64,000 bases of DNA from Malacoraja senta (taxonomy: Eukaryota). This document shows positions 3,385-63,589 of the stretch, in pieces. Every line of letters starts with the position of its first letter. The stretch's first letter is position 1. The notes beneath the pieces are model-generated. The model saw only the letters and a program-made list of their open reading frames with translations, was not told the origin of the DNA and ran no database searches. The position numbers and the translations under genes were made by a program. The DNA is taken from positions 8,744,001 through 8,808,000 of the forward strand of contig CM075990.1 of NCBI GenBank assembly GCA_038087875.1. The letters are read 5' to 3'.

Positions 3385-3506
3385 TGCGTAGGAAGAAACT
3401 GCAGATGCTGGTTCTAAAGAAGTGTCTCGACCCGAAACGTCACCTATTCCTTCTCTCCAGAGATGCTGTCTGAACCCGCTGAATTACTCCAGCTTTTCGT
3501 GTCTAT
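3385..3506. mobile_element. Penelope-derived hammerhead repeat (fold-back form)
   Basis: Family sequence in both orientations; direct repeat ctggggaattggaaaa at 3362-3377 and 3507-3522. Confidence 0.75.
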
Positions 3507-3974
3507 CTGGGGAATTGGAAAAATTGTTCGAGACTTTTAAAACTGGTGTGCCACCAAATCAAAAAGCTAACTGAATGAAAAAGTCTGGAGACATTCGATG
3601 TGTTATGAATAATGCAAACGATTCTCATTGCCCAGTGAGTTTGCGGCTTTACATTAAGGTTTCTGTCTCAGCAGGACACCAACTGGATTGGTCAATAGTC
3701 TTGTCTTACCATCATCCAATTTCACTCACCATTAATTTGCAGAGTAGATCTGCCCATTCATCTATTCCCCCTGGAAGTTGCAACATGTTCAGATTAAGGT
3801 ATCTCCAAGCTGCTGTTTAATTTAAATCTCCCGAGCGGAGGCGTGTGGCTGAAGACATCAGCCATTCCCCCAAAGGTAGGAGAAGCCCAGGCCATTAGCA
3901 TTCACTCCACACGCAGTCAGTTTCATTCCATCATCAGTAGATACTTAGAAAAAATAAATCTGTTATTATTCCAC

Positions 3975-4247
3975 AACGCAGAAACAGGCCCTTCGGCCCA
4001 CTGAGTCCGCACCAACCAGCGATCCCCACACACTAACACTATCCTAACGGCAACTTACATTTATACCAATGCCAGTTAAGCCAACAAACCTGTATGTCTT
4101 TGGAGTGTGGGAGGAAACCGAAGCACCCGGAGAAAACCCACGCGGTCACAGGGAGAACGTACAAACTCTGTACAGACAGCACTCGTAGTCAGCATCAAAC
4201 CCAGGTCTCTGGCGCTGTAAGGCAGCAACTCTACCGCTGCGCCACCG
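3975..4247 (-). mobile_element. HE1-like V-SINE (tRNA-derived)
   Basis: tRNA-like head (ggtggcgcagcggtagagttgctgccttacagcgccagagac), V-domain-like body (gggttttctccgggtgcttcggtttcctcccacactccaaagac), CR1-like tail. Confidence 0.85.
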
Positions 4248-5277
4248 ATGTTGGGGTGAAATCTTGATCTGTCTCATTTTGAGGAATATCTCTAGACTGC
4301 ATGGTCAATGATGGAGATGCTTTGGTGTTAATATTTCCCATTGATCATGCAGTTTGCAAGGATTGTCAGCACATCATTTCTGTAAGCGCTGATCCACGAG
4401 TCTATATAAATCCTGGATCGATAAATAGGTCAGGAAGTGACCTTGGATATGACAGGATCATTTGAGCTGAAAGAAGGTATCTGTGATCACACACTCACCA
4501 AATAGAACATACGCTGCCCAGAAAGCAATGCCAGTCAACCATTAGTGCTTCAGGAAGAGACTGTGTATGCATTCAAAATTAGATTGGGCGGAGATGAAGA
4601 CAAATGAGAACTAGGGCTGTGGCAAACGGGTTTGCATATGTGAAGTGAGCTGTATACTCATGTGAAGATTAAACACTGACATTTTATAATTTTGTATATC
4701 TTTTATTTTTGGTGCCCTTATCTATTATGTGAATTGGAAGCTGAGAAATCATTACATGCCTTTGTGTGAATTTGGCTATAGAAACCTACTAGTTCAAATG
4801 AAAATGATTCTGCAGCATAATGAATGATTTTATTATACTCATTCTTTGCGGTTACAATTAACAGAGGTAAAGCTTGGCTGGATAGATAACTCACCACGAG
4901 ATACTCAACATTCATCTTGGCAGATCTAAGCCAGTGGCATCATTCATTCCAAACGTGGATGTTTAAATAATGCAGATAAATAAATTTGTTTAGAATGAAA
5001 TCCAGATTCACATTAGAGATACAATGAACTGCAGATGATGGAATCTTAGGCAAAGTACAAAGTGCTGGAGGAACTCAACAGGTTAGGCAGCAATGGTCAC
5101 TTGTCTATTCCCTTCACAGATGTTGCCTGACCCGTTGAGTACCTCCAGCACCTTTTGTGTTTTACTCAGAATCACATTAGCTTATTGTCATATCATTGTG
5201 CAATGAAATTTCTTGTTCCTTTGAAGCTCACAGCGTAAACAACATACATACAGTAATGATAAATACAACAATAGTTA

Positions 5278-5790: not shown

Positions 5791-5949
5791 TTACAATTAT
5801 GAGTGCAAAGCAGCAAAATGGTGTAAGATTGTACAGCAATCTGAAATAGTGCAAAACATTATTAAAGTACAATGATAGAATAACCAAATTGGGTAGAGTC
5901 AATAGTAAGGGAACATGGCAACAGCATAAGGCTGTTAAAGAGGTACTAT

Positions 5950-6169
5950 GTGTAAGAAGGAACTGCAGATGCTGGTTTAAACCGAAGATAGACACAAAAA
6001 GCTGGAGTAATTCAGCAGGACCGGCAGCATCTCTGGAGAGAAGGAATGGGTCATTTTCGGGTCGAGACATCGTCTGAAAAAGGGTCTCAACCCGAAACGT
6101 CACCCATTCCTTCTCTCCAGAGATGCTGCCTGTCCCGCTGAGTTTACCAAACTTTTTGCTTCTATCTTC
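5950..6169. mobile_element. Penelope-derived hammerhead repeat, fold-back form
   Basis: ~90-bp inverted arms around the gtctgaaaaagggtctcaacccgaaacgtc core; TSD gctgt(t/g)aaagaggt near 5932 and 6170. Confidence 0.8.
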
Positions 6170-6184
6170 GCTGTGAAAGAGGTG

Positions 6185-7020: not shown

Positions 7021-7754
7021 TCATGGTTTTAGCTGGTCAATAGAATAATGTTTTTTTCTTGAGAAATGGAATGATGGAAGTTTCTTTGAAACAGATGAGG
7101 ACAGTGGATATCTCTCTATTCAAAGAGTTTTTGATTCCACCTCCCCAATCATTGCTGAACATTCAACAAATCTAATTCACCGATTATACATCTTGTGCAT
7201 CCACTCATCACTCACCCCCCATCTGTGTTACCTTGTTGGCTACTTCTCAATTGATGGGAATTTTATGGTAGGTCCTTCATGACTCGTCCATTTGGCTCAG
7301 CGAAATTAGGAATTAGAAAGCCCAGGTACTACAAGATGTTTGAAATCAATATAGTCCAAGCCTCACAGAGGAAGGTCTGGAATGAAGATCAAGCACAAAC
7401 ATAAATTAACTGAACATTTGCTGAATCAATTGCCAGAGTACAGAATAGGTCAACGATAAAATTATTCCACTTGAATACAAAGCAGATAGCATTTACTGTA
7501 TATCTTGCTGTAGAAATAACTTTGTGGATATATAATCTTAAATGTAATTTGCATGACCAGAATATTGAACAGCTGATGTCTTAAGGCCACCCATCTCATC
7601 TACTTCGATGAAACAATGATTTGTGATGTTAGTACATTCCCTGACCAACAGGACCCACGGTTACCTATTGTCATCTGTTATCGGCCATGATTTGTCTTTT
7701 CTTGCTTCCAGTTCCACTCCCCCCCTGCCCCCCACCCCGCCCCCCCCTCCCTAC

Positions 7755-7856
7755 AATCAATCTGAAGAAGGGTCCCGACCTGAAACGTCATCTATCCATG
7801 TTCTCCTGAGATGCTGCCTGACCCGCTGAGTTACACCAGCATTTCATGTCTATCTT
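7755..7856 (+). ncRNA. Minimal type I hammerhead ribozyme motif within a Penelope-derived repeat (representative copy)
   Basis: CTGAAGA-A-GGGTCCCGACCT-GAAAC-GTC at 7762-7789: conserved core, stem II, palindromic ACGT stem III, GUC cleavage triplet. Helix I is very short, so activity is unproven. Confidence 0.6.
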
Positions 7857-8082
7857 CCTTAACAAGGGGTGGCAACCAGTTCAAGTTTCTTTTTGGAACT
7901 TCAATTATCTAATTCCAGTGAAGCGATTGCTCCAATAGCTAAACAAATGGTATTTCATTGTCTCCTGTGATCAGGATGTCCTGTCAGGAGCTGGAAATTT
8001 CACCTAGTTATAGCAATTTGTAAGAGGCAGGGAATGCTGGAGTTAGTCAACAGATAACATAGTATCGTTCGCACGTAAGCAC

Positions 8083-8860: not shown

Positions 8861-8884
8861 TAGCATGTATTTTCTATTTTTTAA

Positions 8885-9195
8885 TTTAGTTTAGAGATAC
8901 AGTGCGGAAACAGGCCCTTCGGCCCACAGAGTCCGTGCCGACCAGCGATCCCCGCACATGAACACTATCCTACACACACTATGGACAATTTACACCTACA
9001 CCAAGCCAATTAACCTACGAACCTGTACGTCATTGGAGTGTGGGAGGAAACCGAAGATCTCAGAGTAAACCCACGCGGTCGGGGGGTGGAACGTGCAAAC
9101 TCCGTACAGACAGCACCCATAGTCGGGTTCGAACCCGGGTCTCCGGAGGTGCAAGCACTGCAAGGCAGCAACTCTGCCGCTGCGCTGCTGTGCTG
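8885..9195 (-). mobile_element. HE1-like V-SINE
   Basis: Same family as 3975-4247 with (ctaaa)n tail. Confidence 0.85.
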
Positions 9196-10096
9196 TCCTC
9201 TTCTTTATATTGTCAGCTTAACATGTTACAAGTAGACCTTTGATGCAGTCTGTGGTTTTTGAATGAGGTGAATGGGTTACTGGATGTTGGTCTTAGAGGC
9301 TCTGGTTGCAGTAACTCAGTCCCTGAAGAAGGGTCCCGACCTAAAAACATCACCTACCCATTCCCCCCACAGATGCTGTCTGACCCGCTGACGTACTCCA
9401 GAATGTTCTGTTGTGTAAAATATCATGTTTATTAAAAAACTGAGCAACAACATGCCATAGTTGCCGAGTAGTTCACAGCACTGGTCTCTGGAAACTCCTG
9501 GACTCCGGTTACATGGTCTGCAGTCCATTCTCCTCTTTCCTAATTTCCCAACAGTCTTTGAAATTCCCCAACACTCTCAATAGGCCAGTTCATCATTTGG
9601 ACAATTGAGGAAAAGGATGTGGAGGAAGGAACTGCAGATGCTGGTTTACACGGAAGATAGACGCAAAATGCTGGAGTAACTCAACATTTGGGTCTGGCAG
9701 CATCTCTGGAGTGAAGGAATAGGTGAAGTTTCGCGATGTCTAAATATCAAAATCTCAAACCTAATAAAATCTCATTGGGTGGGGGATAGCCGTGATCCCT
9801 GCCCTCCTAAAAGTTTCTGAACCTGGACTTCCGACAGCAGATACTTCAAGGCACTGGAACGGTGCTACCAGTGGCATCTTCACAAAATCGTCAAGACTGC
9901 CATTGGGGTAGGCCTCTCCCAGGCCAACAGCTCCAGCACTGAGAGCCTAATTTTAGTCAGTCGGCTCTGCTGGGCATCCAGCCATTTGCATGCCCAACAC
10001 CAGACTCCCAAAGCACATGTACTGTTGCAAACTGGGAAGAACTCAAGGATGAGCCAAAGCATCCTTGGGAAAAAAAGCAACATCCTACTGAGTCAT

Positions 10097-10372
10097 GGGC
10101 GGCACGGTGGTGCAGTGGTAGAGCTGCTTCCTTACAGCGCCAGAGACCCAGGTTCAACCCTGACTACGGGTGCTGTCTGTATGAAGTTTGTACGTTCTTT
10201 CTGTGACCACATGGGTTTCCTCCCGCATTCCAGGATGTGCAGGTTTGTAGGCTAATTGGCTTCCGTAAATTGCCCCGAGTATGTAGGATAGAACTAGTTT
10301 ATGGGAGATAGCTGGTCAGCGCAGACTCGGTGGGCTGAAGGGCCTGTTTCCATGCTGGATCTCTAAACTAAA
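10097..10372 (+). mobile_element. HE1-like V-SINE
   Basis: gggcggcacggtggtgcagtggtagagctg...ctctaaactaaac. Confidence 0.85.
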
Positions 10373-11394
10373 CAAGACTCCTGCCCTCTAAAGTGAAAAG
10401 GAAACTTTTAGGTTGGTTTTAAGATCAAAGCCAGGCATTGGAAACATCAACCCATGATAAATGGCAAAAGGATTACACCACTTCTTAAACTACTCGCCCA
10501 CCTGTCCTGTTGACATTATTGCCCAATCTGCGAAAACTCCCCTCTGGTAAAGTAACCAGCATGGAAGAAAGTTATCATTAAGTCCTGGGGTATAAATGTA
10601 TTAGTCTTAATCCATATGTTGAGTTTCATCCCTCAATCCCAAGACAAATTAACATCCAAAGGAATGTCCAACAGATAAACTTGATTTTATTGATATTACG
10701 AGTCAAAATGTCACAGCCATTAAAGAATGTGTTTGACCTTTTAAATCCTCCTGTATCCTGCAGTCTTCCAATGTTACAACCAATTGCTCATTCCCAGTTG
10801 TCTCTGCTATCTTAATGACCACACTACACTGGTTTGGACTGGCTTGCCATTGTAAACAGTCTTTCTAAAGAACATGATTGCGCCAACAGTTTCAATACTG
10901 GGGGGAAAAATACATCAAGGAAGAAATATTTACACCTGGTATCAGTTCTGCAGCATTTCTCCAGGTAATTGCAAAACCAAAGATCTTTATCATAATCAAC
11001 AAAAGTACCAGCATGTGAATGGCTTCTGCATTCTTTAACCCTTAACGTAACCACTCAATGTACCTTACGATTATTAAGTCAGAGCCGGGGAAAATGGGAT
11101 GGATGACACTTTACATGAGTGTATATAGTATTCATGGCATAATAGATGAATGAATGACTCAATAGGAATTAGTAGATATGCACAGCGGTAGAGTTGCTGC
11201 CTTACAACACCAGAGACCCAGGTTCGATCCTGACTACAAGTGCTGTCTGTACAGAGTTTGTACGTTCTCCCCATGACCATGTGGGTTTTCTCCGGATGCT
11301 CCTGTTTCCTCCCACACTCCAAAGACGTATAGGATTTAGGTTAATTGGCTACGGTAAAAATTGTAAATTGTCCCTAATGTCCTGAAGTAATAAA

Positions 11395-12121: not shown

Positions 12122-13956
12122 TTACTTTGGGTACGCAAGCAAACATTTCACTGTGACTGTGACAAAAACCCTTTCTGGCTTAAATCCTCCCTCCACCACC
12201 TCCAGTTTAAATTCCATTTGGAATATTTTGGAGGACCAAGAAACCAAGAACCAAGAACCAAGACTGACAATAAAGTATTCATCCATTCATTCATGTGTAG
12301 GATAGTGGTAGTGTACGGGGTGATCGCTGGTCAGCGTGGTCTCGATGGGCCGAAGGGCCTGTTTCCACACTGTATCTCAAAACTAAATTGAACTAAATTG
12401 ACGTGGTTGCAAGCTAATTGAGATTGGGAATGCCTGGAAACCTAACTTGCAAAGGAGATGACAAATGGAAAAGGAGGGGAGATGATCCTGAAAAACAAAA
12501 AAATGGGATAAAGGCAACAGAGAGAAGTGATCATTGCTTGGAAAGTCAAGAAGCAGAATCATGGCTAACTGGGCTCTAATCCCTTGTTTTCTCCATCTCT
12601 CATAAGCAGCAGGATTACATTTCCAACCTAACAATCTGATTTGTAAACTATTTTGTAACCTTTCATTATAAAACTTGTGAGCTATTAATTAATGCTTTAA
12701 TGCTTTAAAGTTAGCTGTGTTAATCCCTTAATGGTCATATATTTTAATGCAATTACCCAGTCGACTGTGGCCAATTCATGCCACATACCGCTGGGACCCT
12801 GGTTCCAGATTCAACTATATCAGTTTCAATCTTTATAAAGAAATTTATTGTATTTTGATCACTTATTCTTAATGGGGCTCCTTAACTACCTGGTTATTAA
12901 TTAACCTTCATTTATTGCACGATATTAAAATTATCCATTCCCTTATTGTTTATAAAATACAAATCTAGAATATTAGAATTGTTACACATTCCAGAAATCT
13001 GACCTACTCACTATTCCAGCTAATTAGATTTTCCCAGTCTGGATGTAGGTTGATGCCCCCCCCCCCCCTCCCCCCCCCCTGATCATTGTATTACCATTCA
13101 AACATATGCCTCTTATTCCCTGATTTATATTATATTACCACGACTCAAAAAGCACTTGTACTTTTGGTAAAGGTACTACTGTTTTTATTGGTATTCATAT
13201 TGGTTTATTATTGCATATGTACCAAAATACAGTGAAAAGTTATTGTTTGCTTGCTATCAGGTCAAAGCAAATCATACAGTCCATGAGTACAATCAAGCTG
13301 TACATACGTACAACAGGTGGTACAATGAGAAAAATATCAGAGTGCAGACTATAGTTTTACCGCATTGCGGTGTTACTGTTTCAGATAAAAAGTCCAGTGC
13401 CCACAGTGAGGTAGGTTGGAAGACTGGTGGGGAGGCTGGTCTGTGTGATGAACAAGGTGGCACCCACCTTTCCCTGCAATTTCTTGTAATCTTGAGCAGA
13501 GCTGCTCTCAAACCAAGCTGTGATGCAACCCCATAGTCTACTTACTACAGTGCATCTGTGGAAGTTGGAAGTTGTTGGAAACATGCTAAACTTTCTTAGT
13601 CTCTTGGAAGTAGAGGCCCAGGAGTGCTTTCTTTCTGGGAGTGCTTAGTTCTGATGAGGGTTCCAGTATTTAGAAACAGTAATGATAAAACAATTGTGGA
13701 GAACATCCTAAAACCCTTGTCTTTTTGGTGGTAGACATTGCGGCTTTGGGAGAAATCTTGTAAATGGATTTCCCTACAGTTACTGTATGCTGATACTGGA
13801 TGAAATTAATGATTAAGGTGATGTATTGGATCACAAACATGTGAGCTACTTTGTCCGAGATGATATCAATGTCATTGTGTGTTGCTGGAACTATAATCAT
13901 CTATGCAAGGAGGAAATATTCCATTGCACCTAACATATAGATGGTAGAAAGGCTTT

Positions 13957-14240
13957 GTTTAGTTTGGTTTAGGTTAGTGATACAGAGTGGAAACAGGCCC
14001 TTCGGACCAGCAAACCCCGCACATTAACACTATCCTACACACACTTGGGACAACTTACAATTTTACAAAGCCAATTAGCCTGCAAACCTGTACGTCTTTG
14101 GAGTGTGAGAGGAAACCAGAGATCCCGGAGAAAACCCACGGGGAGAACGTACAAACTCCGTACAGACAGCACCCGTAATCAGGATTGAACCCGGGTCTCT
14201 GGCGCTGTAAGGCAGCAACTCTACCGCTGCGCCACTTTGC
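13957..14240 (-). mobile_element. HE1-like V-SINE
   Basis: Family sequence. Confidence 0.85.
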
Positions 14241-15225
14241 CTCAGGATTTGTGCATCCTTTAGTGCATCAGGATTTGTTCACTTGCCGTGGGATACCTGC
14301 CACTGACCTGCTCTTGTAGACCAGTATTTGGGCTTCTGCTGTAGGTGGATTTCTGGTTGATTGTGGTTCAAGGATGGTGGGGACTTAGTGAGCGCAGAGT
14401 CATAGAGCACAGAAACAAGCCCTTCGGTCCAACTTGCCCATAGTGACTAAGATGCCCCATCTTCACTAGTCCCACTTGCCTGTATTATGCCAGTGTTTAA
14501 TTGTTATATGTACCAAACCAGAACAATGACATTTATACTTGCAGCAGAACAGGTATAAACACGGTACTCAATAGATAACATCATAAAACAAACAAAAAAG
14601 TTCAATAAATAAAAAATAAAAACAATATTAGTGCAAAACAAAACAAAAGCCCAAAGTCTAAAATGCAACCAAGACAGTTAATGGCTTGGAGTCTAGTTGA
14701 TATTTGCAGTGTTTAATGACATGATGGTTGTTGGGAAGAAGCTGTTCCTGAACCTGGAGGAATACCCACGGTATTTAGACTCCTATACCTTCTTCCCGAT
14801 GGCAAGAGTGTATTGAGAGCGTGGCCAGGATGGTGAGGGTCCTTGATGAAGCTGGTTGTCTTTATAAGTGCACCACCTTTGATGGTGGGGAGGTCAGTTC
14901 CCGTGATGGCCCACATATTGTCATCTCCTTTCATTCCCGGGTGTTTGAGTTGCCCAACCCAGTCTGTGATGCAAGTAAATTATCCCCAAAACACACTAGA
15001 GGTGATTTGGCTAAAAACCACAAGAGTTGATTGGCTCAAGTATACAAGATGTGAGGTTTGAATTGCTCCTGAATCTGCTGATTTATGAATTAATTATTTT
15101 GCTGCAATTTGAAACAAAATCCTCTGTTCCATTGTGTGCTTACTGCCTCTTTAACTATTTAAGTTAAATTGATTCATTGTTTGTTTTTTGTGAATGGAAC
15201 AAATTAAAATAAAAACAATTTTTAT

Positions 15226-15545: not shown

Positions 15546-15664
15546 ATTTTAGTAAAATACATTACAATGGGAAGATGGGAAGGATATCTTAGTCCACTCT
15601 TAGCACTTGTAAGAACCAAATTAGAGATATTTTTCTCTTTGTCAGCCAGACTTTGCTTTTCATT

Positions 15665-15879
15665 GTGCAGGAAGGAACTGCAGATGCTGGTTTACACTGA
15701 TGATAGACACAAAATGCTGGAGTAACTCAGCGGGATAGGCAGCAGAAGGAATGGGTGACGTTTCGGGTTGAGACATTTCTTCAGAGTCTGAAGAAGGCTC
15801 TAGAACTGAAACATTACCCATTTCTTCTCTTCAGGGATGCTGCCTGTCCCATTGAATTACTCCAGTATTTTGTGTCTAT
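15665..15879. mobile_element. Penelope-derived hammerhead repeat, fold-back form
   Basis: Inverted arms; perfect 14-bp TSD ctttgcttttcatt (15651-15664 / 15880-15893). Confidence 0.8.
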
Positions 15880-16108
15880 CTTTGCTTTTCATTCCTGTGA
15901 AGCATCAGTGATATTTCTGGGCCTTTTTTCTGAAACACCTTTTAGAACTTCCACTCTTTCATATCTAAATATTTCATTTTTTCTGCCTCTGTCTTTATCG
16001 ACCCTTCTCTCACTTCATCCATCACCTTGCTTCTCCCCCTCCTCATCCTAAACACAGCCTTCCCCATATCCTCCCTGCAATGTAGCTGACGTCTGTTCAG
16101 TTACACAG

Positions 16109-49919: not shown

Positions 49920-50080
49920 CTGAGGAATATTAGTCTGAAGAGTCTGAAGAGTCTGAAGTAGGGTCTCGACCCGAAACATCACCCATTCCTTCTATCCAGC
50001 GATGCTGCCTGGCCCGCTGAGTTACTCCAGCATTTTGTGTCTGTCTTCGTTAAGCCAGCATCCGCAGTTCCTTCCTACAC
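49920..50080 (+). mobile_element. Penelope-derived repeat
   Basis: Ends ...cagttccttcctacac; TSD aatggacat(a/t)cttgt (49905-49919 / 50081-50095); 5' (gtctgaaga)x3 stutter. Confidence 0.8.
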
Positions 50081-52932
50081 AATGGACATTCTTGTAATGG
50101 GTATGAATCTATGACTCTATGTTTAGATGGGGCATCTTGGTTAGTTGGGCCGAAGGACCAAGCCAGGAATAACTCGGAAAACTATTTCTTTTGGCTCACT
50201 GCCATGTACAAATCCATTAAAAACTTGGACAATGGCAAGCAACTCCTTGCCAACAGGGAGAGGAATGAGTGTTGTGGAGTTATATGTCTGTTCCACTTAC
50301 ACGTCCCGTCCCATCCACCATCCCCGTCAGCTGTCTTTGTCCATACTTAATGGAGCTCATTTGCATCTAGGTTATCACATAACAGCTTCATTTTTATATT
50401 TAAACTTCAAAGACACTAAATTTTATTAGGATTTTCCACCTACTCTGTGTGTGTTTATCTTGTTCGCATAATTTAGGGCACTTAAACTCTCAAGTATAGA
50501 CTTACCGAGAGCAAGTCCCACTTAATATTTTGAATTTTGAAGCACTTCACATTATACAACACTTCAATAAAACACATTGTAAAATTGCAAATTCCCAAAG
50601 GTAAGTATTGTGAAGACTTAAGACTGAAGAATTAACTGAAAATCAACCAGAACCCTATTATGTAATGGAATATAGAACAGTACAGTGTGTGAGGGGGAAC
50701 TGCAGATGCTGGTTTAAACTGAAGACAGACACAAAAGCTGGAGTAACTCCAGCTTGTTGTGTCTGTCTTCGGCATTGAACAGCACAGCACAAGAACAGGC
50801 CCTTCGGCCCACAATGTCTGTGCTGAACAAGATGCCAAGACAAGCACTTATCTACCTGTGCATAACCCATATCTCTCCATTCCTTGCATATACCCATGCC
50901 TATCCCAAAGTTGTTTAAATGCCACTAACGTATCTGCTTCAACCAGCAGCACATTCCAGGCACTCACCATTGCCTGTGTAAAACCCCCTTTTTTTTTCTT
51001 TGCCCCTCTCACCTTGAACCTATACCCTCTAGTATTTGATTTTTCTATACAAGCTTTGAAACCGCTTTTCCACTGCAGTGGAGATATGAGGGTGACAGAG
51101 CGGCACAGTTAGATGCAATCATGACCCGTTGGGTTTCTCCAGCACATTGTCATAGAGTCATAGAGAGATACAGTGTGGAAACAGGCCCTTTGGCCCAACT
51201 TGCCCACACCGGCCAAAATGTCCAGCTACACTAATCCCACCTGCCTGCGTTTGGTCCATATCCCTCCAAACATGTCCTATCCATGTACATGTCCAACTGG
51301 TTCTTAAATGTTGGGGATAGTCCCAGCCTCAACTACCTCCTGTGGCAGCTTGTTCCATACACCTACACTATTGTGTTAGTACAATGGCTGCCTTACCATT
51401 CCAGTATCATGGATTTCATCCTGATCTCTGCCATCACCTTGCATATATTTCCTCTGTCAGTGTCCTCCCAGTGCCCTCTGGTCCTCCCAAATTCACACGG
51501 GTTGGTGGCTTAATTGGCCACAGTGAATTAGCCTTAGTGTACAGAAGAAGGGTGGGATTTAGAAGGGTTGGAAAGGAATCTAAGGAGAATAACATTGATG
51601 CAGTTTAGGATTTAGTGTTAAGGATGCTTGCCTTTTCATATGAACATGATGAGCCCAAGGCTTGCCTCTCTGCTGTATGACTGTCACTCTGATTTTGTGT
51701 GGAATCTAACTGGGGGAATAAGAAACCATATCATGAGGGAATCCACACTATTAGAGTCGTAACAGAGCAGAGTGTGTTTTACATTCAGTGTTGAAATTGG
51801 TGTATTGAGAAGGATTAAAATCAATAATCTCAGAGTGGATAAAACTCTATCTGCTGAAATGAAACATCTGATACTAGGGGAATATTGTCAGTTTTAGCTT
51901 GTAGCTACATGATTAAAATGTAGCTTTAAAGTCAATTATTTGCGAGACCATCCGTGGAATGCAGCCATGTGGAAACTAGGACGAAAGGCAGCAAAGATCA
52001 ACAAAATCATTCTCCATATCGGATATCCTGATAGAGAATTAATGAATTGCTGTTGAAGTTATGGGAGGTATTGGAACTCATCTGAGAAATAACAAAACAC
52101 AAGGAATTGCAATTGCTGGTTGTGCTCACAAGGTGCTGGAGTAACTCAGTTGGTCAGGCAGCATATCTGGAGATCATGGATAGGTGATATTTCAGGTCAC
52201 TTCTTCAGTTTCTTCAGTCTGAGGAAGGGTTCCAACCTGAAACATTGATTATCCTTCTCCAGAGATGCTGCCTGACCTATTAAGTGAGGATGTACATCCT
52301 CTAAGCTTATTTTTTTGAGGTGCCACAACAACATTGTATTGTTTAGAACATATAAAGACATAGAACAGTACAACACATAAAGAGGCACTTTGGTCCACAA
52401 TGTCCATGCCAAACACAATGTCAGGTTCTACTAATTGGATCCATATCCTTTTATTCCCTGCATGGGATGCAAGCAGAAGCCTCCACCTGGCGCATCCCGG
52501 GCAATGCTGATGACAGGAACTGTACCACAGTGACTGACTGAAGTAGCCAATTCTGCAACCACCGACCGTCAACCGTCACTGACCGACCGGAAAGACGTGA
52601 TATAGAAGATGGCCGGACACGAGGAAGAAGATTCCCTGCATATACATGTGCCTTATTTAAAACCCCCTTACATTCAACTATCGTATGTCTCCACCACCAC
52701 CCCTGACAGCGCATTCCAGCCACCCATCACTCTTTATGTAAAAAACGTACCCTGCACATCTCCTTTTAATTTTGCCCTTTTCATCGTTCCCGGGTCCTGC
52801 ATTGTTCTTCACGGCTCATCATCCCCCCCCCCCCCCCCACCCCACGCAGGTCCTCCATTGTTCTTCATGGCAGTCCCCCCCTCTCACGCCGGGTTCCTAT
52901 TGTCATCTATGCCACTCTGAATTTTATGAATT

Positions 52933-54007
52933 GTCAGGTTGGAGGCCGGTGACTAGTGGCGTGCCTCAGGGGTCTGTGTTGGGTCCACTGTTGTTTGTCA
53001 TGTACATCAATGATCTGGATGATGGTGTGGAAAATTGGATTAGTAAGTATGCAGATGATAGTAAGATAGGTGGTGTTGTGGATAATGAAGTAGATTTTCA
53101 AAGTCTACAGAGAGATTTAGGCCATTTGGAAGAGTGGGCTGAAAGATGGCAGATGGAGTTTAATGCTGACAAATGTGAGGTGCTACATCTCGGCAGGACA
53201 AATCAAAATAGGACGTACACGGTAAATGGTAGCGAATTGAGGAATGCAGTTGAACAGAGGGATCTAGGAATAACTGTGCATAGTTCCCTGAAGGTGGAAT
53301 CTCATGTAGATAGGGTGGTAAAGAAAGCTTTTGGTGTGCTGGCCTTTATAAATCAGAGCATTGAATATAGAAGTTGGGATGTAATGTTAAAATTGTACAA
53401 GGCATTGGTGAGGCCAATTCTGGAGTATGGAGTACAATTTTGGTCGCCTAATTATAGGAAGGATGTCAACAAAATAGAGAGAGTACAGAGGAGATTTACC
53501 AGAATGTTGCCTGGGTTTCAGCAACTAAGTTACAGAGAAAGGTTGAACAAGTTAGGTCTTTATTCTTTGGAGCGCAGAAGGTTAAGAGGGGACTTGATAG
53601 AGGTCTTTAAAATTATGAGCGGGTTAGACAGAGTGGACGTGGATAAGCTTTTCCCTTTGAGAGTAGGGAAGATTCAAACAAGGGGACATGACTTGAGAAT
53701 TAAGGGACGGAAGTTTAGGGGGAACATTAGGGGGAACTTCTTTACTCAGAGAGTGGTAGCTGTGTGGAATGAGCTTCCAGTGGAAGTGGTGGAGGCAGGT
53801 TCGATGTTATCCTTTAAAAATAGATTGGATGGGTATATGGACGGGAAAGGAATGGAGGGTTATGGTCTGAGTGCAGGTAGATGGGACTAGGGGGAAGTAT
53901 TTATTTTTAATTTTAAAAAAAATTAAAAAAAATGTTCGGCATGGACTGAAGGGCCGAGATGGCCTGTTTCCGTGCTGTTATGGTTATATGGTTATATATG
54001 GTTATAT
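52933..54007 (+). mobile_element. Young 5'-truncated CR1 LINE (RT C-terminal half, open frame to 53890)
   Basis: SGWRPVTSGVPQGSVLGPLLF...KYADDSKIGG...QFWSP...FFTQRVVAVWNELP; (tatatggt)n tail; sits within an older minus-strand CR1 (~52620-54430). Confidence 0.95.
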
Positions 54008-54938
54008 ACTTCTATCCCTCAGCTTCCGATGCTCCAGAGAAAACAATCCAAGTTTGTCTAACCTCTCCTATGCTTAATACCCTCTAATCCTGGCAGCATT
54101 CTGGTAAACCTCTCATGCATCCTCTCCAAAACCTCCACATCCTTCCTGTAGAGAGGTGATCAGATCTCCACACAATATTTAAAATATGCCCTAACCAAAG
54201 TGCTTGAAACCTGCAAACATATTCCTGACTCTTATACTCAAAGCCCTGACCAATGTAGGCAAGCGTACCATATACATCTTCTTTACCCATTATTTACTTG
54301 ACTTGCTACTTATGGGAGCTATGGACTTGAAGCCCAAGATCCCTCTGAACATTAATACTGCTAAGGCTCTCACCATTAACTGTATACTGTTCTCTTACCT
54401 ACAACCTTCTAAAATGCAATACCTCACACTTGCTTGGAACAAACTCTATTTGCCATTTCTCCATAAATCTAATCACATTTCAACCATAGCATCATCACAC
54501 CACCATTCTGACATTTTCATACATGAACTATATCATTCTGTCTGCATTGTGGACATCTTCCATCCTGTCATGATTCATTCATGAAAACACAATCAACTAA
54601 TGTTACCAAAGACAATGATTGATCGTAGTTAAGTAGATTGAAGAACAAGGCCTAAGATACATTTGAAGCCTTGATTGATTGTGGAGCAAAAGAGCCATTA
54701 CCCAGGATCACGTTTTGGAAGACAGGGCAGGATATTTCCTTATCTGCTCCCAGCAAGCTGACCCCTAATGCCAAGTCAGAGAGCAAGGTTAATGGGGGCG
54801 AATGAAGTTATGAATGGGCACAACCCTAAACAGCAAGCAAATTCAACAACAGCAATTTGCAGTTACACAGCACTTTTCATATAGTAGAGCATGCCAAATA
54901 GTTCACTGGGAAATTTATATTAAAAACACATTTACACA

Positions 54939-55230
54939 GGGCAGCACAGTGGCACAGTGGTAGAGTTGCTGTCTTATAACACCAGAGACTCGGGTTCGAT
55001 TCTGATCTTGGGTGCTATCTGTACAGAGTTCCCACGTTCTCCCTGTGACCGTGTGGGTTTTCTCCAGGTGCTCAGGTTTCCTCACTCCCGCACTCCAAAG
55101 ACACGCAGGTTTGTAAGTTAACTGGCTTCTGTAAATGGTAAATTGTCCCTAGTGCGTAGGATATTGTTAATGTACGGGATGATCATTGATCATTGGTCGG
55201 CGCGGCCTTGTTGGGGCAGAAGGGCCTGCC
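54939..55230 (+). mobile_element. HE1-like V-SINE
   Basis: Family sequence. Confidence 0.8.
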
Positions 55231-56379
55231 TTCACATTGCATTTGTAAAGTCTGAAGTCAAACTGGAGAGAATGTCAGCTCGTGCCTGCTCGCTCAGTTG
55301 CTTCACATCAGTTTCACCAAGATACGTTGAAAGGACAAAGATATCCTTCATTTAGCCTGTGACAGGACTACCTGCTGGACCATAAAACGACTTGATGTTA
55401 CGTTTTAAATAGTGCGATGTTTGGAAAGGCAACTGCTATTTGTGAGCACAGCAAGATTTGTGATGAGTTAATTTGTGACTTTGCTGGTCTTGATCAGCCA
55501 GGAGATCAGGACCTGTTGTTCTTGGATCGGTGCCCAAGTGGCAATGTAATGCCCATGCAAACAGGCAGCAGGGGATTTACATCCACACACATTATTTCCC
55601 AGGTCAGTTCCAATATCTCCCTCAAACACCTTGGTCATGAGCCTCGTTGATACGCGGGTGCAAGTAAATATAATTATTTTTGAGTTTGGAAATCAGTGGG
55701 CAATTACATGAAATAATTTGGTGCTTTAAGCAACGGAATGATCATGGAGATTTTATTTTCCCCACTGGGGTATAGATGAAGGAAGCGAGCGTGTGCTAAA
55801 GATGCTGCTGGTGGTAGCTGTTCTGATACACAGCATGGAGGTGCTGCTGGAGCTGTGAACAGCTGACATTCCTGCAGAGTTTCTGACCCGCTGCTTTACC
55901 CAGGCCTGTTTGCTCAGCATGCACCCAGTTCATCCATCTGTGCCTGTGTAAGTGGAAGGTACGTTACCTTCTATTAACTCTCCTGCCACCAGATCAGATG
56001 TGAGGTGTTCGTCTTATCATTCTTGCGCAATAGTCGGCTGTGAAGACCGGCACACCTTTGCCTGTGCTGGTGCCCCACAGGAGGGGATGTCCTGAGATGA
56101 GGACACAGCATGGAGTAAGTAGCACTAGGGAGTCTAGCATAGCACGGCACTGTTCACATGGTGCAGCTCAGTCCATCATTGCACAACATAGTCCAGCGCT
56201 GCCAAATGCAACAAGGCATAGCTCAGCCTCGCATAATACAGCCTAGCTGTCCAACATAGAAGATAAACACAAAATGCTGGAGTAACTCGGGACAGGCAGC
56301 ATTTCTGGAGAGACCATACTGCTGCCTGAGGAAGGGTCTCGACCTGAAACGTCACCCATTCCTTCTCTCCAGAGATGCT

Positions 56380-57224: not shown

Positions 57225-57710
57225 GATGCTGCCTGTCTTGTTGAGTCTTATTGTCTATAACTCATTTCCACCTGGTCCCGAGCTAACAATGGACCTTTCC
57301 CTTTATCATCGTTACTTTTTTGCATATCTACATCATTGTTTTACTTCGGAGTCACGTGAGTGACTACGTGAATAGAAGGCCGTCAGCCCGCATGCGCGTC
57401 ATTACGTCTAGCGCATTGCGCAACGGCTGACTGGGAGGCGCGCTGCTCCTTCCAGCGGTAAGTTTAAACCTACAGGTAAGTTTCAAGACTTATTTGTAGG
57501 TTCTGCTTTTTGTGTTGCAGGAAGCTCTTTACAGAGTTTGCCTGCTGAATTTCGGGGCGACGTCCGGACGGGCCGCGGGGAATCCGGTTATGGACCATGG
57601 GGAATCGCGGTCCGCACAGCGGAAGTGCGGGTAGCCGGCGGACGTCGGGTTCGCTACCTAAGTCACTGACAATGGGGTTAGCGGCTCCTAGGCTCCTAGG
57701 TCAGCGGCTC

Positions 57711-57915
57711 CTATGGTTCCCCACAATGGGGGTAAATCCAGCAGTAAGCCGGTCTCGCAACCCGAGTCACTGACAGTGCGGTCAGCGACTCCCAGACCGC
57801 TATGGTGCCCCAGAAAGGGGGTAAAACCAGCAGTAAGCCGGTCTCGCAACCCGAGTCGCTGACAGTGCGGTCAGCGGCTCCTAGACCGCTATGGTGCCCC
57901 AGAAATGGGTCAAAC
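57711..57915 (+). repeat. 89-bp tandem repeat (~2.3 copies) inside the DIRS element
   Basis: ctatggt recurs at 57711, 57800 and 57889 with near-identical intervening sequence. Confidence 0.9.
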
Positions 57916-58928
57916 CACAAGTAAGTCGTTCAGGCCTTAGGACTCGGGTGAGTCGGGCCAGGAGGGTTCCCCTCCTTCAATGGGTGCGTCTACGGATGCC
58001 TAAACCCACATGCAGCACCTGATGGAGAGGTTGCTCCACAATAATCCTCCAAAGGAGGGAGTTATCAGCGCGGGTCTCCTCGGGGGCCCGTGGCAGCGGC
58101 AGCGGCACCTGTTTCGGGGCTGCACAATGTCTCCCTCTCTGAGGAGGGGCGCATTCAGGGTCAGTTTCAGCTCAGAGCAAAAATCCTGATATAGGTCTGT
58201 AGGAGGGGCCATGTCAGCGCAGGTATCCTCAGTGGCCTGCGGCAGCACCTGTTTTCAGGGCTGCCTACGAATCCCCTTCTCTGTGGAGGGGAGTGCTAGG
58301 AAATACTCGCTAGTGAAGGGGTTACTGCCGGAAGAATTGGTTCCAGCCGTTGGCAGAAAACCCGGAAGGGGCCAGAGTTCCCCTCACGCTACAAGTGCCG
58401 GCAGTCAACAGCGCTATCAGGGTAGACATTGGAAGGAAATGAAACCAGACGCCGAATCTTCTCTTCAGGTAAGACTTATCCAACAGGTATACCTGGATGA
58501 GGAAGCAAAGCTGTCGGACTGATCAAGGTACCGACGACGAACAAAGCTTCATCGTATCGGCGACGACACACCCCACGCCTCATCGGCAGTAAGCAGTTCA
58601 CTGAAGCTGGTGGCAGCTTGAAAGCTGGGCAGAGGTCTTTCAGGCCTAGGTCCAAGCCGGTCTCAGGAAATATGGAATCCACATACACTACCATTCCTAC
58701 TCTCCAATCAAGGACGAGAATAGAACCCACATCAGGGGCCTTTGGGCTTACCATAAGACCACCGGTAACCATGGAGGTAGGTGGGTCTGGTTCTTCCGAA
58801 ACATGGAGTAAGTGGACCATTTACAAGTTGGGAATATTTACACTTGGTTTGTACAAATGAGAATGATAACATGTGATTGCATTATTATTGCACAGTATAC
58901 AAGGGTACCAAGTATGGTTTGGAATTGG

Positions 58929-59214
58929 GGCCAGAGTTGTCTTTCGAGGCAGGCTCAGTATTACGGCCAGGATTGCCCTCAGAGACAAGCTCAGAAATAT
59001 GGCCAGAGTTGTCTTTCGAGGCAGGCTCAGTATTATGGCCAGGATTACCTTTCGAGACAGGCTCGGAAATAAGGCCAGAGTTGTCTTTCGAGGCAGGCTC
59101 AGAATTGGCCAGAGTTGTCTTTCAAGACAGGCTCAGTATTATGGCCAGGATTACCTTTCGAGACAGGCTCGGGTATCTGGCCAGAGTTGCCGTTCGAGGC
59201 AGGCACGGCATTAT
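58929..59214 (+). repeat. 36-bp minisatellite (8 units, alternating A/B variants) inside the DIRS pol region
   Basis: Units start ggccag at 58929, 58965, 59001, 59037, 59073, 59107, 59143 and 59179. Confidence 0.92.
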
Positions 59215-60451
59215 GGCAGGCGTGGCCTGTTCATTGTGAAAGATGGAGGATGTCGGTTCATAATTGATTTAACTAGCTTGTGCAACATAGACTTTTCAGT
59301 ATATGGAACTTCGTGACTAAGATGCATACTATTCAGGTCCCATTCACAGGGATCACCGGAGACATTTGAAATGTATCTGGATGGGGCAATGATAACAGTT
59401 AATGCGTTGCAAATGGGCAAACTTCAGCTCCTAGGTCATCTATCAAATTACTAAACCAGTGCTTGGACTGCTCAGAGCTCTAAAACACTTGTTATGGCTT
59501 AGCTGGATGATATTCTAAACACTGTGTTTTGCTAAAATCAACTGTTTCAGCCGCAACTATATTTGAGAAATTGAGGTCCCTCATCCATCCAACTAGAGTT
59601 ATTGATTATTCGGATTTACCTTTAACTATTAATTTATCTGTGACTCCGCCCTGGGGCAAGAGATTGGAATCAATAGAAGCCTGTAACTACCTTGTTATCA
59701 AGCAGTCTTCTAACCATCAAGTGTAATTGGCAATATAGCAGCTGTGTTTCAGCTGTGTAATTGGGCCTTTGCATTATCAGAACTTACAACGTGCAAAGTA
59801 GTAACCTCTCAAGTGCCATATAGGTCATTGTTAACATACCTATGCTATTACCAGCTGAAGCTACCTAAGTCACAATGGTGGACAAACTATATTCAGCATT
59901 GCTCCAGTAGTTTTGGTCAATTAATCTTCAGTATATTAGAAACTGATGCTAGTGCTCAAAGATGGTAAATTACGAATGCCATCTCTAGTCACAGAGGCGG
60001 ATGGGATTTGCATGAATTACCAATTGTTCAGTTATTGGTATCAACTACCTATAGACACTAGGTGCATACTATGGGTTAAAGGGTTATTGTGCGAATATGC
60101 ATAAACTGCATGCTCAGTTCCAAATTGATACACTGTGGTGGTGGCATATATTAGTCACATGGGTGCAATCAAGTCAAAGTATCCTGTCATATTATAGTTT
60201 CCCCCGGAAGAGAGGGGTTACTATTATTATTATTTGTTCATTTATCAGCATCAGCATGTTTTAAATCTATGTCATGTCTGTATGCATTATGAATGTTTCC
60301 CTTATCTGTGGTCAACTGATGCAGTCGTGCTTGTGTGGACTCGTTTTTCCATGGCATGAAATCACAGAGCTTTAAAATCTTCAAGTAGTCACTCACGTGA
60401 CTTCGAAGTAAAATAGATTAAACGAGAACTTACCAGTTAAACGAGAACTTA

Positions 60452-62704
60452 CTACCTGATACATTAGCGGAATCAACGATTACATTAATACCTAAGAAAA
60501 ATAAAGACTTAGAAGAACCTGGTTCATATAGAGCTATAGCATTGTTAAACACAGATCAAAAAATATTAGCGAAAACATTAGCTAGAAGATTAAGTAAATA
60601 CATTAGTAAATTAATAAACCCAGATCAGACGGGGTTTATCCCTAAGAGATACTCATCTAACAATATGAGACGTCTACTCAACATAATGCACTCACACAAA
60701 TCTGAAGATCAAGAATTATCAATTATTTCGCTGGATGCTGAAAAAGCATTTGATCAAGTAGAATGGAATTATATGGACAAAGTATTACAAAAATTTCAAC
60801 TGGGGGAGAATTTTATTCTATGGATCAAGTTACTATATAACAAACCTACAGCTAGAATACTAACTAATAACATATTATCCTCGAAATTCCAACTATCAAG
60901 GGGAAATAGACAAGGATGCTCATTATCACCACAGCTGTTTGCTCTCATTATTGAACCGCTAGCAGAAAAAATTAGAATACACCCTGATATCCATGGATAT
61001 AATACGAAAGACTCATATAATAAAATATCTTTATACGCGGATGATATATTACTGTACATTACAAAACCTCAAATCACTATACCAAATATATTAAATTTAA
61101 TTGAAGACTTTGGATCTTTTTCTGGATATAGAATAAATTGGAATAAAAGTGAAATTATGTCAATAAAACCGAAAGATTCAACACATCTTTTAAAATTCCC
61201 TTTTAAAATAGCTACAGAAAAATTTAAATACTTGGGAATCGAAATTACCAGATCATATCAAGGTATGTTTAGGGCAAATTTTGACCCCTTACTTAATAAA
61301 TTAAACACACTAATTAAATTCTGGAAAACGCTCCCGATGTCTTTAATAGGCCGAATAAACGCAATAAAAATGATCTTTTTACCACAAATTTTATACCTAT
61401 TTCAATCAATTCCTATATATTTACCAAAGAAGTTTAAAAAAAAACTCGACTCAGATATCACTAATTTTATATGGAACTATAAATCACATAGAATACAAAA
61501 AACTCATCTGAATAAACCTAAAGTATTAGGGGGTTTAGCACTACCTAATTTTATGTATTATTATTGGTCAGTAAATATTAAAAATATGATTCAACTGATG
61601 GATAACTCCGCCCAGCAAGTGGACTGGATTGTAATGGAGAAAGAGGATTGCTCCTCTAGAAACATTGGAGCGATCCTCCTCTCTCCAATGAAACTGAATA
61701 ACATAAATTATAATAAGAACCCAATTATTCATAGTACAATCCGAATTTGGAAACAAATAAAACAAAATTTAAAATTAAGAAATTTATCACTTTTATTACC
61801 TATAGTCAATAACCCTTCGTTTAATCCTTCTATTATAGATAAAGCTTATACACAATGGGATAGATTAGGAATTAAAACGCTTGGTGACTTGTATGAAACT
61901 GGAAAATTACTTTCATTTCAACAATTACAAATAAAATATAAACTCGGAAATAATCAATATTTTAAATATTTTCAAATATGTGACTATTTGAAAAAATATA
62001 CAAAAGATCATTATAATAACCCAGTAGATGTATTGGACGAGGCAATGCAGATAAAAGCGGAATCAGCAAACTTAATATCTTATTTGTATAATATTATCTT
62101 AAATGTACAAATACCACCTACGGAGGGTATCAGAAGAGACTGGGAACAAGAGTTAGCTATTAAAATTTCAAAGGAAAGTTGGAATGAATACTTATTAAAC
62201 GTGCATAAATGCTCGATTAATGTAAGACACACTTTAATACAATTTAAAATTTTACATAGATTATATTATTCGAAAACTAAAATTCATAAAATTTTCCCAA
62301 ATGTATCATCTATTTGTGATAAATGTCAATCCCAAGAAGCTACTATAGCGCACTCATTCGTTTTCTGTACTAAAATTCAAAAATTTTGGAATGAAATTTT
62401 TGAAATCTTTACAAAGTTATTTAAAACAAGACTGATACCCAAAGCAGAATGGATTATCTTCGGTATAACGGAAGATGGTCCAGAACTAAATGTGTTTCAA
62501 AAGAAACTAATGGACTATGGGTTAATAATAGGAAAAAAGCTAATTCTAAAATTTTGGAAGAAGGCTCCAATACCAACTATAAATATGTGGATTTCAAATA
62601 TGTTTGAAACATTACACCTAGAAGAGATAAGACTCCTCCTAGCAGGTAAACCAGATCACTTCCACCTGATGTGGTCTGCATTTATAGAATTATTACAAAC
62701 ATAG
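60452..62704 (+). CDS. L1-clade ORF2 fragment: reverse transcriptase + C-terminal CCHC region (no start codon, endonuclease missing)
   Basis: DQTGFI, SLDAEKAFD, RQGCSLSP, LYADD, INWNKS, KYLGI, CDKCQSQEATIAHSFVFC; no stops over ~750 codons. Confidence 0.9.
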   Translation, partial: LPDTLAESTITLIPKKNKDLEEPGSYRAIALLNTDQKILAKTLARRLSKYISKLINPDQTGFIPKRYSSNNMRRLLNIMHSHKSEDQELSIISLDAEKAFDQVEWNYMDKVLQKFQLGENFILWIKLLYNKPTARILTNNILSSKFQLSRGNRQGCSLSPQLFALIIEPLAEKIRIHPDIHGYNTKDSYNKISLYADDILLYITKPQITIPNILNLIEDFGSFSGYRINWNKSEIMSIKPKDSTHLLKFPFKIATEKFKYLGIEITRSYQGMFRANFDPLLNKLNTLIKFWKTLPMSLIGRINAIKMIFLPQILYLFQSIPIYLPKKFKKKLDSDITNFIWNYKSHRIQKTHLNKPKVLGGLALPNFMYYYWSVNIKNMIQLMDNSAQQVDWIVMEKEDCSSRNIGAILLSPMKLNNINYNKNPIIHSTIRIWKQIKQNLKLRNLSLLLPIVNNPSFNPSIIDKAYTQWDRLGIKTLGDLYETGKLLSFQQLQIKYKLGNNQYFKYFQICDYLKKYTKDHYNNPVDVLDEAMQIKAESANLISYLYNIILNVQIPPTEGIRRDWEQELAIKISKESWNEYLLNVHKCSINVRHTLIQFKILHRLYYSKTKIHKIFPNVSSICDKCQSQEATIAHSFVFCTKIQKFWNEIFEIFTKLFKTRLIPKAEWIIFGITEDGPELNVFQKKLMDYGLIIGKKLILKFWKKAPIPTINMWISNMFETLHLEEIRLLLAGKPDHFHLMWSAFIELLQT

Positions 62705-63096
62705 GGTGCAAAAGTACTTAAAAAAAAAAAAAAAAAAATTCAGGTCAGGGGGGATGATAGTTGAAGAGTTCGTATGTCCCATTTACGTAATGCTCATAAA
62801 AATATTTGTTTCTCTATTTTTCCTCTTTCTCTCTCTCTTTCTTTCCTAGGGTCTATTTCTTAACTCTTTTTCTTTTGTTTTTAATTTTGCTCTTATAGGG
62901 TCTTCGTCCTTTTTTGTTGTCACATTTCCTACACTTTCACTTTTTCCTTCACTTTCTTCTTTCTTTCAATCTTTTCCTTTTCTAGTGTAAAAAATAAATG
63001 GAGTACATTAATTGTAAGAAGATATAAATGACGAGTACTAATGTATGTGGTTGTAATGTAATGTACTTCTAATAAATAAAATAAAAATAAAAAAAA
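60452..63096 (+). mobile_element. Young 5'-truncated L1-clade LINE with poly(A) tail
   Basis: Starts mid-ORF2 (LPDTLAESTITLIPKKNKD...SYRAIALLNTD), pyrimidine-rich 3' UTR, AATAAA and A-rich tail ending at 63096. Confidence 0.93.
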
Positions 63097-63589
63097 GAAG
63101 TTTGATCTTTATTTTATGAGGAGTTACGATGAGCGATTACGTGCCCTCTGCTCCCAACCCTCGTATCATAAAGATCATCTTGCAGTTCTAGTCATCTCTA
63201 ATCTTACTATGTTGGTTCAACAACCGTTATCTGTGATTTCACACCGCTGCTTTGAAGATTGGCGCGCATGCGGGCTGACGGCCTTCTATTCACGTAATCG
63301 CTCATAAAATAAAGATCAAACTTCAAACTGGTAAGTTCTCATTTAATCTTACTATTCTATTTTTCCCTATATCACTGTTTATATCTCCTGTTTCCATTTC
63401 CCCAGTCTGAAGAAGGGTCTTGATCCAAAATGTCACCTATTCCTTTTCTCCAGAGATGCTGTTTGACCCGCTGAGTTACTCCAGCTTTTTGTGTCTATCT
63501 GCAGAACATCTCCAGCTGCCTCAGCAAGGCCAGCAGCATAATTAAGGATCAGTCTCACCCTGGTCAGTCACTCTTTTCCGCTCTCCCAC

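Follow-up and report, generated by a model that had tools for sequence, protein, structure and literature searches.

A stretch of 64,000 nucleotides from the skate Malacoraja senta (assembly GCA_038087875.1, contig CM075990.1, positions 8,744,001 to 8,808,000 of the forward strand; hereafter the window) contains many short copies of a repeat that carries a minimal hammerhead ribozyme motif. Our analysis indicates that these repeats are probably dead-on-arrival insertion products of an abundant, endonuclease-bearing (EN+) Penelope-like element (PLE), most likely of Neptune type, and that each represents an end of that retrotransposon, its pseudo-long terminal repeat (pLTR), and no separate element. 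The original prediction, made from the sequence alone, had proposed a non-autonomous, retrozyme-like system; this we do not uphold, since the window holds no tandem of the repeat unit and since truncation into the endonuclease end, an inverted arm, a tail and a target-site duplication (TSD) are marks of the products of an autonomous PLE. As clipped PLE ends with a worn and already known motif, the repeats would be common genomic debris and no new ribozyme system.

A profile search (nhmmer) built from six window copies returned 46 segments, of which 41 were kept for analysis and five weak ones (60-105, 2361-2392, 48577-48617, 51122-51150 and 57280-57329) were left out. Projected on a common frame, the reference of which begins at -2 and ends at model position 128, the 41 segments fall at 26 loci and cover 3,727 bp, or 5.8% of the window. 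The shared core that had been predicted is plainly present, a 25-nt core pattern matching 12 times at no more than three mismatches against 0.00 expected in the window, and a tail-end pattern matches 14 times against 0.63 expected. The repeat described as some 20 copies from position 3385 on is thus real, but its copies are more numerous and the first lies at 426. Dfam and Repbase very probably contain the family already. Likewise, the tail of about 100 nt ending in CAGTTCCTTCCTACAC exists, although only 6 of the 23 segments with a full core carry it and most end about 35 nt sooner; no poly(A) follows the 3' ends of the copies, as had been stated. Exact-pattern scans of metagenome contigs and of viral contigs gave no match in either. 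The host gene is GRID1, on the plus strand, as was correctly recognized (exon at 26753-26908, best PDB match GluD1, E 6e-29), and its last coding exon ends near 35142; no further GRID1 exon was found in the first 26 kb with the motifs tried, and that stretch is assumed to be intronic.

The case for PLE insertion products rests on the anatomy of the copies. The longest (17985-18359, minus strand) joins an open peptide, GSLQPSGGMNIDFTNFR, followed by a stop, and a second (47232-47513, minus strand) joins a frameshifted version, so that of the two junctions to a GIY-YIG-type C-terminal peptide that had been claimed one is open and the other disrupted. Judged by eye against Fig. S2 of PMC8557442, the peptide resembles over 17 codons the ends of Neptune endonucleases and not those of Poseidon; the proposed derivation from Penelope appears to be right. 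Because one TSD encloses 17985-18359 as a whole, endonuclease end, untranslated region (UTR), hammerhead and tail were inserted together in a single event, and another TSD encloses a 41-nt insertion consisting of tail alone. Insertions range from 41 to 375 nt with common 3' ends; two copies extend to the end of the open reading frame (ORF) and four more into the UTR. The 3' ends themselves fall into two groups about 35 nt apart, at model positions 86-101 (16 of the 41 segments) and 121-128 (17 of the 41).

Head-to-head inverted pairs, which the original prediction did not mention, make up 12 of the 26 loci, and in 11 of these 12 the tail, that is, the longer 3' end, is present on one arm only. 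TSDs of 11-16 bp (score of at least 9) were found at 10 of the 26 loci, as compared to 9 of 650 mismatched flank pairs, and divide into 8 of the 12 pairs and 2 of the 14 single copies. An optional one-arm tail, an inverted head-to-head copy, 5' truncation, the lack of poly(A) and a variable TSD are thus all found as features of PLE ends. Insertions of EN+ PLEs are known for 5' truncation, an inverted adjacent copy and a 30-40 bp tail (PMC3846280; PMC8557442; PMC2377424), and the window shares with the EN+ PLEs described by Arkhipova (2013), Craig (2021) and Schostak (2008) the inverted head-to-head arm, the junction palindrome, the one-arm tail, a TSD of about 10 bp and tail-led ORF copies, the last of which are known in Drosophila (PMC2377424). 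The window insertions differ from those described in being nearly all stubs of 40-230 nt, with 5' ends piled in a 4-nt window. The copies are listed below, with C3 denoting the start of the core.

17985-18359, minus strand: longest copy; it opens with the final 17 codons of a GIY-YIG-type endonuclease and their stop, then runs through a pyrimidine-rich 3' UTR of 186 nt and the hammerhead to the downstream arm and tail; C3 at 18117, ACAT variant; TSD core GAAAGAATGTT on both sides.
18307-18359, minus strand: C-terminal peptide of this endonuclease, GSLQPSGGMNIDFTNFR; Neptune-like by eye, with no match in Pfam or PDB.
47232-47513, minus strand: second copy to reach the endonuclease end, frameshifted; 103-nt UTR, ACAT hammerhead and tail; downstream of GRID1.
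7743-7862, plus strand: best-preserved hammerhead of all, with C3 at 7762; the copy retains some of the UTR and has the short 3' end; in GRID1 sense.
19871-20133, plus strand: permuted copy of one unit; after the tail and 34 nt comes a candidate ORF start (ATG at 19938, some 20 codons open), followed by a pyrimidine tract, a hammerhead with G12>C and the short end; it looks like a tail-led element minus the ORF interior.
3385-3513, both strands: head-to-head pair; left arm of tail only; 16-bp TSD.
5022-5169, both strands: head-to-head pair without hammerhead core; 14-bp TSD with one mismatch.
5947-6174, both strands: head-to-head pair, its left arm tailed; G8>A in the core; TSD of 14 bp, one position mismatched.
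15661-15885, both strands: head-to-head pair joined at an AGT/CTGAAG palindrome; tail on left arm; 14-bp TSD.
23187-23509, both strands: head-to-head pair of a diverged subfamily; the right arm retains some 70 nt of UTR.
25654-26171, both strands: head-to-head pair; 330-bp insertion at TTA in the right arm; 16-bp TSD with one mismatch.
31781-31972, both strands: young, near-perfect palindrome centred in helix II, lacking the 5' half of the core; flanked by a TSD of some 14 bp.
31998-32826, both strands: head-to-head pair with arms starting at AGT; 600-bp insertion at the same TTA in the right arm; 11-bp TSD with one mismatch.
39859-40089, both strands: head-to-head pair downstream of GRID1; tail on left arm.
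50685-50785, both strands: short head-to-head pair that lacks a core; TSD of 11 bp, one position mismatched.
52100-52285, both strands: head-to-head pair of a diverged subfamily; decayed cores.
56247-56379, both strands: head-to-head pair; core at 56326 differing at C11.1 only, with helix I lacking its 5' strand; a further insertion cuts the right arm.
49932-50084, plus strand: tailed single copy; a triple 9-mer, AGTCTGAAG, forms its 5' end and begins exactly at the 5'-end hotspot; core A9>U, ACAT.
41790-41830, minus strand: smallest insertion, essentially tail alone; 14-bp TSD.
63387-63505, plus strand: single copy that retains some of the UTR and has the short 3' end; G12>A and C15.2>U in the core.
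426-489, plus strand: old single copy; decayed core.
2174-2305, both strands: copy at 2210-2305 (plus), 5' core absent; beside it, on the minus strand, a 21-nt piece resembles the candidate ORF start (identity 19 of 21, E 0.007).
2945-3018, minus strand: single copy with its start at the hotspot; core with G12>A and ACAT.
9323-9411, plus strand: single copy starting at the hotspot; decayed core.
9618-9733, minus strand: single copy with tail; 5' core absent.
17418-17499, minus strand: old single copy; 5' core absent.
19567-19657, minus strand: single copy starting at the hotspot; decayed core.

A close parallel for the way in which such insertions may form is PAc, a Poseidon element of the green anole (Frangieh 2024, PMC11167929), in which reverse transcription starts at two internal sites bounding the tail and both target strands are extended. 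Mutants of the PAc hammerhead insert normally and its cleavage needs protein (PMC11167929). In both systems the hammerhead lies upstream of the reverse transcription start sites, and the skate element, like PAc, would insert from uncleaved RNA. They differ in that the PAc ORF starts inside helix II, whereas the candidate ATG here lies 34 nt past the tail, and in clade, the endonuclease end in the window looking Neptune-like. The reverse transcriptase (RT)-endonuclease protein of the skate element would nick its target in a stagger, producing the 11-16 bp duplications, and, by analogy with PAc, reverse transcription would begin within the RNA downstream of the hammerhead, at one or the other of two sites separated by about 35 nt, to give short or tailed ends. 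When started in the 3' repeat, the cDNA would cross the hammerhead, the UTR and the endonuclease codons and stop at variable points. Both nicked strands would be primed, one per start site, and the two cDNAs joined head to head; the pairs are what we observe, and the priming is what we propose to account for them.

The 5' ends add a further regularity. Among 38 arms and single copies, 6 reach into the UTR, 15 have their start inside the repeat, and for the other 17 it falls between -2 and +1 around C3; in other words, 17 of the 32 UTR-less copies begin in a four-base window (P 1e-15 against a crude uniform null), while none of the 32 begins at the cleavage site. The triple 9-mer AGTCTGAAG at 49932-49958 starts at the A of this hotspot. 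Because the local TCAGTCT presumably fits the initiator consensus, with its A at the hotspot, we consider run-off at the 5' end of the RNA the likeliest cause for most copies stopping 0-3 nt upstream of the core, at somewhat less than an even chance. The simplest reading that the hotspot suggests is that reverse transcription begun in the 5' repeat runs off the start of the RNA, two-nick priming then giving a tailed and an untailed member of each pair. We tentatively extend this to a fuller proposal, in which the stubs would be run-off ("strong-stop-like") cDNAs of a transcript starting at an initiator 3 nt upstream of the core, with an internal start of reverse transcription in the 5' repeat and with both nicks primed at the two start sites to yield tailed/untailed pairs; that helix I is only 2-3 bp long would follow from such a transcript start. 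Drosophila Penelope is known to have an internal promoter that includes an initiator (PMC2377424), and in the literature searched, outside which most subscription journals lie, no paper describes such a 5'-end pile-up or the run-off idea.

The main alternative for the hotspot is capture by the local TCAGTCTGA palindrome, which predicts symmetric arms, whereas most pairs have just one arm that extends to the hotspot, and it is the starting point of single copies as well. Splicing was also considered as its cause. The UTR (18118-18307 and 47364-47470, minus strand) has GT at its start, overlapping the ORF stop, and a pyrimidine tract with CAG at its end, exactly at helix I, a layout that resembles the Penelope intron of Drosophila virilis, which ends at helix I; all five single copies that start at the hotspot nonetheless share no upstream exon, and no skip joint is found among the best 15 of 450 joints.

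A sharp 5' boundary in 17 of 32 copies is also what one would expect if most copies were dispersed, non-autonomous derivatives resembling short interspersed nuclear elements (SINEs), that is, short RNAs from solo stubs or deleted units copied in trans by PLE protein. There are far more stubs than ORF-linked copies, three sequencing runs of relatives give good support to loose ends at 18119-18121, and both trans-mobilization by pLTR sequences and non-autonomous PLE derivatives have been described (PMC8557442, PMC3846280). The window also holds one ORF-deleted unit, the 263-nt copy at 19871-20133, in which the order is tail, candidate ATG, UTR and hammerhead with the ORF interior skipped; it could be a non-autonomous derivative, possibly a mini-PLE, with a putative coding start. 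It is, however, single-copy in the window and has no clear TSD, and stubs and ORF-linked copies are alike in sequence and in their level of private decay. Moreover, PAc requires RNA up to ORF position +172, past its reverse transcription start at +111-118 (PMC11167929), and if the same held for the skate family the stubs would lack what is needed. On balance we find trans-copied derivatives an improbable source of most copies, and favour truncated products of the PLE itself.

Near-identical repeat sequence occurs in sequencing runs labelled with six organisms. About 300,000 records were placed on the repeat, runs X17-X21, with their small shares, being left out; X22 is a single-cell RNA run, about 1% of which was read. 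Over the hammerhead its raw RNA depth amounts to about 30,000; immediately upstream it is 6,051, in the middle of the UTR about 2,000 and at the ORF end 66, a drop as expected for steep truncation, to which subfamily differences in the UTR add. The loose ends at 18119-18121 are among the best supported in runs X1, X10 and X22, and the flanks at 18119 and 18120 are near-random in the DNA runs; opposite-strand joints at 18113-18121 are present as well. The strand bias in X22 was set aside as a sign of element transcription, mate orientation being ambiguous and the opposite strand of the UTR being A-rich. As a separate observation, X22 shows A>G at 43 and G>A at 45 places over 17940-18420, as compared to 16-17 and 19-24 in the DNA runs.

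The same data bear on whether this might be a true family of retrozymes lacking long terminal repeats (non-LTR retrozymes), in which tandem hammerhead units would give rise to circles that are reverse transcribed and reinserted, the window copies being monomeric offspring. Non-LTR retrozymes consist of tandem units with complete hammerheads and produce circular RNA (PMC7229834; bioRxiv 10.64898/2026.07.22.740005). [quoted passage not shown] In the relatives, the G of ACGU is kept in 64-78% of the placed sequence (4 of 4 runs). Same-strand joints lead from 18118-18121 back to 18026-18037, each listed joint being found in at most 23 contigs, and in X15 one record is a direct dimer of about 130 nt whose two units are separated by tail letters. 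A minority of dimers thus exists in relatives, which the partial tandems of PLEs also predict; the joints amount to tens of contigs among some 300,000 records, X22 gives 0-13 reads for each same-strand joint among the best 15 of 450, and tandem units with complete hammerheads are absent from the window. Nor does X22 have any site where many molecules begin or end, although for that library, a single-cell run of which about 1% was read, the test is a weak one. In described retrozymes the hammerheads are canonical, with a helix I of about 6 bp and a loop-loop contact (PMC7229834), as opposed to 2 bp here, although the 2026 preprint admits minimal motifs too (bioRxiv 10.64898/2026.07.22.740005). 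With no UTR-less copy starting at the cut site, with the inverted arm, tail and ORF end being marks of PLE insertion, and with 2 of the 26 loci including the endonuclease end, one of them within a TSD, which speaks against a family without a coding part, a retrozyme origin appears very unlikely to us.

Regarded as a PLE motif, the hammerhead is familiar. At the family level it reads CUGAAGA, one extra A, a 4-bp helix II of GGGU/ACCC with a 4-nt loop, GAAA-CG-UC and a helix I of 2 bp; these letters fit the predicted minimal type I hammerhead with palindromic helix III and short helix I. They agree with the minimal hammerhead ribozymes (min-HHRs) reported in the pLTRs of metazoan PLEs (Cervera and de la Pena 2014, PMC4209133) in the core letters, the extra base after A9, G10.1-C11.1, the palindromic 15.2-16.2 without a loop 3 and the very short helix I. 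As in the window, min-HHRs are mostly single dispersed motifs tied to truncated PLEs, and second copies lie at a distance of 100-700 bp on the opposite strand. The same architecture, with an extra base after A9, ACGUC and a 3-bp helix I, is seen in a coral Neptune motif (PMC4209133, Fig. S3), and the 2-bp helix I of the window is like that of a D. virilis variant; the one supplementary file searched contains no shark or skate entry (PMC4209133). Nor did the literature search give a full-text match to the exact motif or peptide, or anything on elasmobranch Neptune PLEs or shark Penelope hammerheads. An Rfam search of the window at E<=1 found no hammerhead family, which says little for motifs without helix III, and returned only weak microRNA (miRNA)-hairpin matches, on palindromes.

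The individual copies are worn. None of the 23 full cores keeps all 15 core letters and 8 of 23 keep ACGT. Of the four cores named as best, those at 7762 and 56326 (both plus strand) differ only at C11.1 (C11.1>U at 7762), the latter having lost the 5' strand of helix I, whereas those at 18117 and 47363 (both minus strand) read ACAT and have lost the palindrome; the computed self-duplex is -3.1 kcal/mol for ACGU and +2.8 for ACAU. Monomers are probably inactive, as was anticipated, helix I having a pair probability of at most 0.04 in 6 of 6 folded copies and the active shape being absent from the folds; single-strand folds of seven cores were none of them more stable than shuffles (z -0.69 to 1.12). 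Helix positions are paired in 84.7% of cells, with one two-sided change, in the 2-bp helix I of the 7762 copy. Non-CpG core positions differ at 11 of 289 cells as compared to 289 of 2017 in the flank (P 3.5e-8), which points to a core held constant across subfamilies, though the copies were found via the core. At the ACGT site (core position 25-26, for example window 18092) G>A outnumbers C>T by 15 to 3 (P 0.0075, about 0.04 after five tests), unlike the other CpGs, which decay evenly in both directions; one possible reading of this surplus of ACAT relative to ATGT is that source elements went on transposing after their palindrome had been broken. We envisage that the hammerhead would be maintained in source elements and decay after insertion, mostly at CpG, and we predict that it works only as an ACGU-paired dimer, perhaps with help from protein, the RNA being copied uncleaved.

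The state of the cores also limits what the repeats might do to their host. It had been suggested that GRID1 introns are seeded with cleavage sites; 29 segments do lie upstream of the GRID1 stop (16 plus, 13 minus), but the other 12 of the 41 (6 plus, 6 minus) lie past it and hence are not intronic, and the claim shrinks to one near-intact sense-strand core, that at 7762, for which a dimer partner would still be required. Besides this core, cutting or folding of GRID1 pre-mRNA at the repeats could draw on the inverted pairs, all seven of those folded giving hairpins of -76 to -147 kcal/mol. We nevertheless give host action next to no credence, as no core is fully canonical, no strand bias distinguishes copies inside the gene from those outside, min-HHR monomers are inactive and dimers weak in vitro (PMC4209133), and the PAc hammerhead needs protein (PMC11167929).

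Several points weigh against our interpretation of the repeats as truncated ends of an autonomous Neptune-type PLE. Clade and autonomy would follow from a likeness over 17 residues judged by eye, and the 21-aa endonuclease peptide has no match in Pfam or PDB. Neither an RT nor a full ORF of a PLE was recovered from the window, no copy of the repeat reaching as far as an RT; of its 46 frames of at least 110 aa, eight were scanned for protein families and two matched RT, and both of these we take to be RTs of long interspersed nuclear elements (LINEs). The candidate ORF start (19887-20021 or 19899-20003) has no match in protein searches, about 20 homologous residues being uninformative. A fixed 5' end together with fixed 3' ends would also fit short non-autonomous transcripts, head-to-tail joints do occur in relatives, in low numbers, and PAc belongs to the Poseidon clade, so that its mechanism may not transfer. 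The reference starts at -2, and starts further upstream were excluded by eye only; the X22 gradient is inflated by subfamily differences in the UTR, and contig depth gives no copy number. Finally, the contrast between core and flank is favoured by core-based detection, two flank blocks being nearly as conserved (9.0% and 6.2%), and helix covariation is not above shuffles (367 of 500).

Other elements share the window with the repeat. Two distinct insertions, at 25780-26108 (about 330 bp) and 32183-32776 (about 600 bp), have similar GGCC-type inverted ends with TTA on either side and interrupt the repeat at the identical TTA; we assume them to be Harbinger-like miniature inverted-repeat transposable elements (MITEs), and their position suggests a preferred MITE target inside the repeat. 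The palindrome at 31781-31972, in the last GRID1 intron, forms a near-perfect 73-bp hairpin of -146.8 kcal/mol with weak scores in plant miRNA models, and is a possible double-stranded RNA or editing substrate. A second repeat family of about 300 bp, presumably a tRNA-derived SINE, has 11-12 copies (8863-9193, 10094-10379, 13954-14241, 16098-16429, 21850-22176, 42688-42969, 54929-55249 and others). The two open RT frames, apparently young, lie at 52742-53890 (382 aa, RVT_1 E 7.7e-14) and 60422-62704 (760 aa, RVT_1 E 6.9e-40), and we take them to be CR1-like and L1-like, respectively; tandem repeats at 57711-57925 (period 89) and 58921-59217 (period 36/72/106), beside the L1-like frame, are possibly monomers of its 5' UTR.

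The hammerhead described here adds one lineage to a motif described across animals in 2014, while the junctions constitute a large natural record of how the inverted ends and tails of PLEs are formed, a step that is still unsettled. If the hotspot is a start of transcription, it would offer a simple explanation for solo and inverted pLTR stubs and would support the view that insertion can do without hammerhead cleavage. Should the run-off proposal prove true, thousands of genomic stubs would map the Neptune transcription start and both reverse transcription starts at base resolution, and the hammerhead would be shown to be bypassed.

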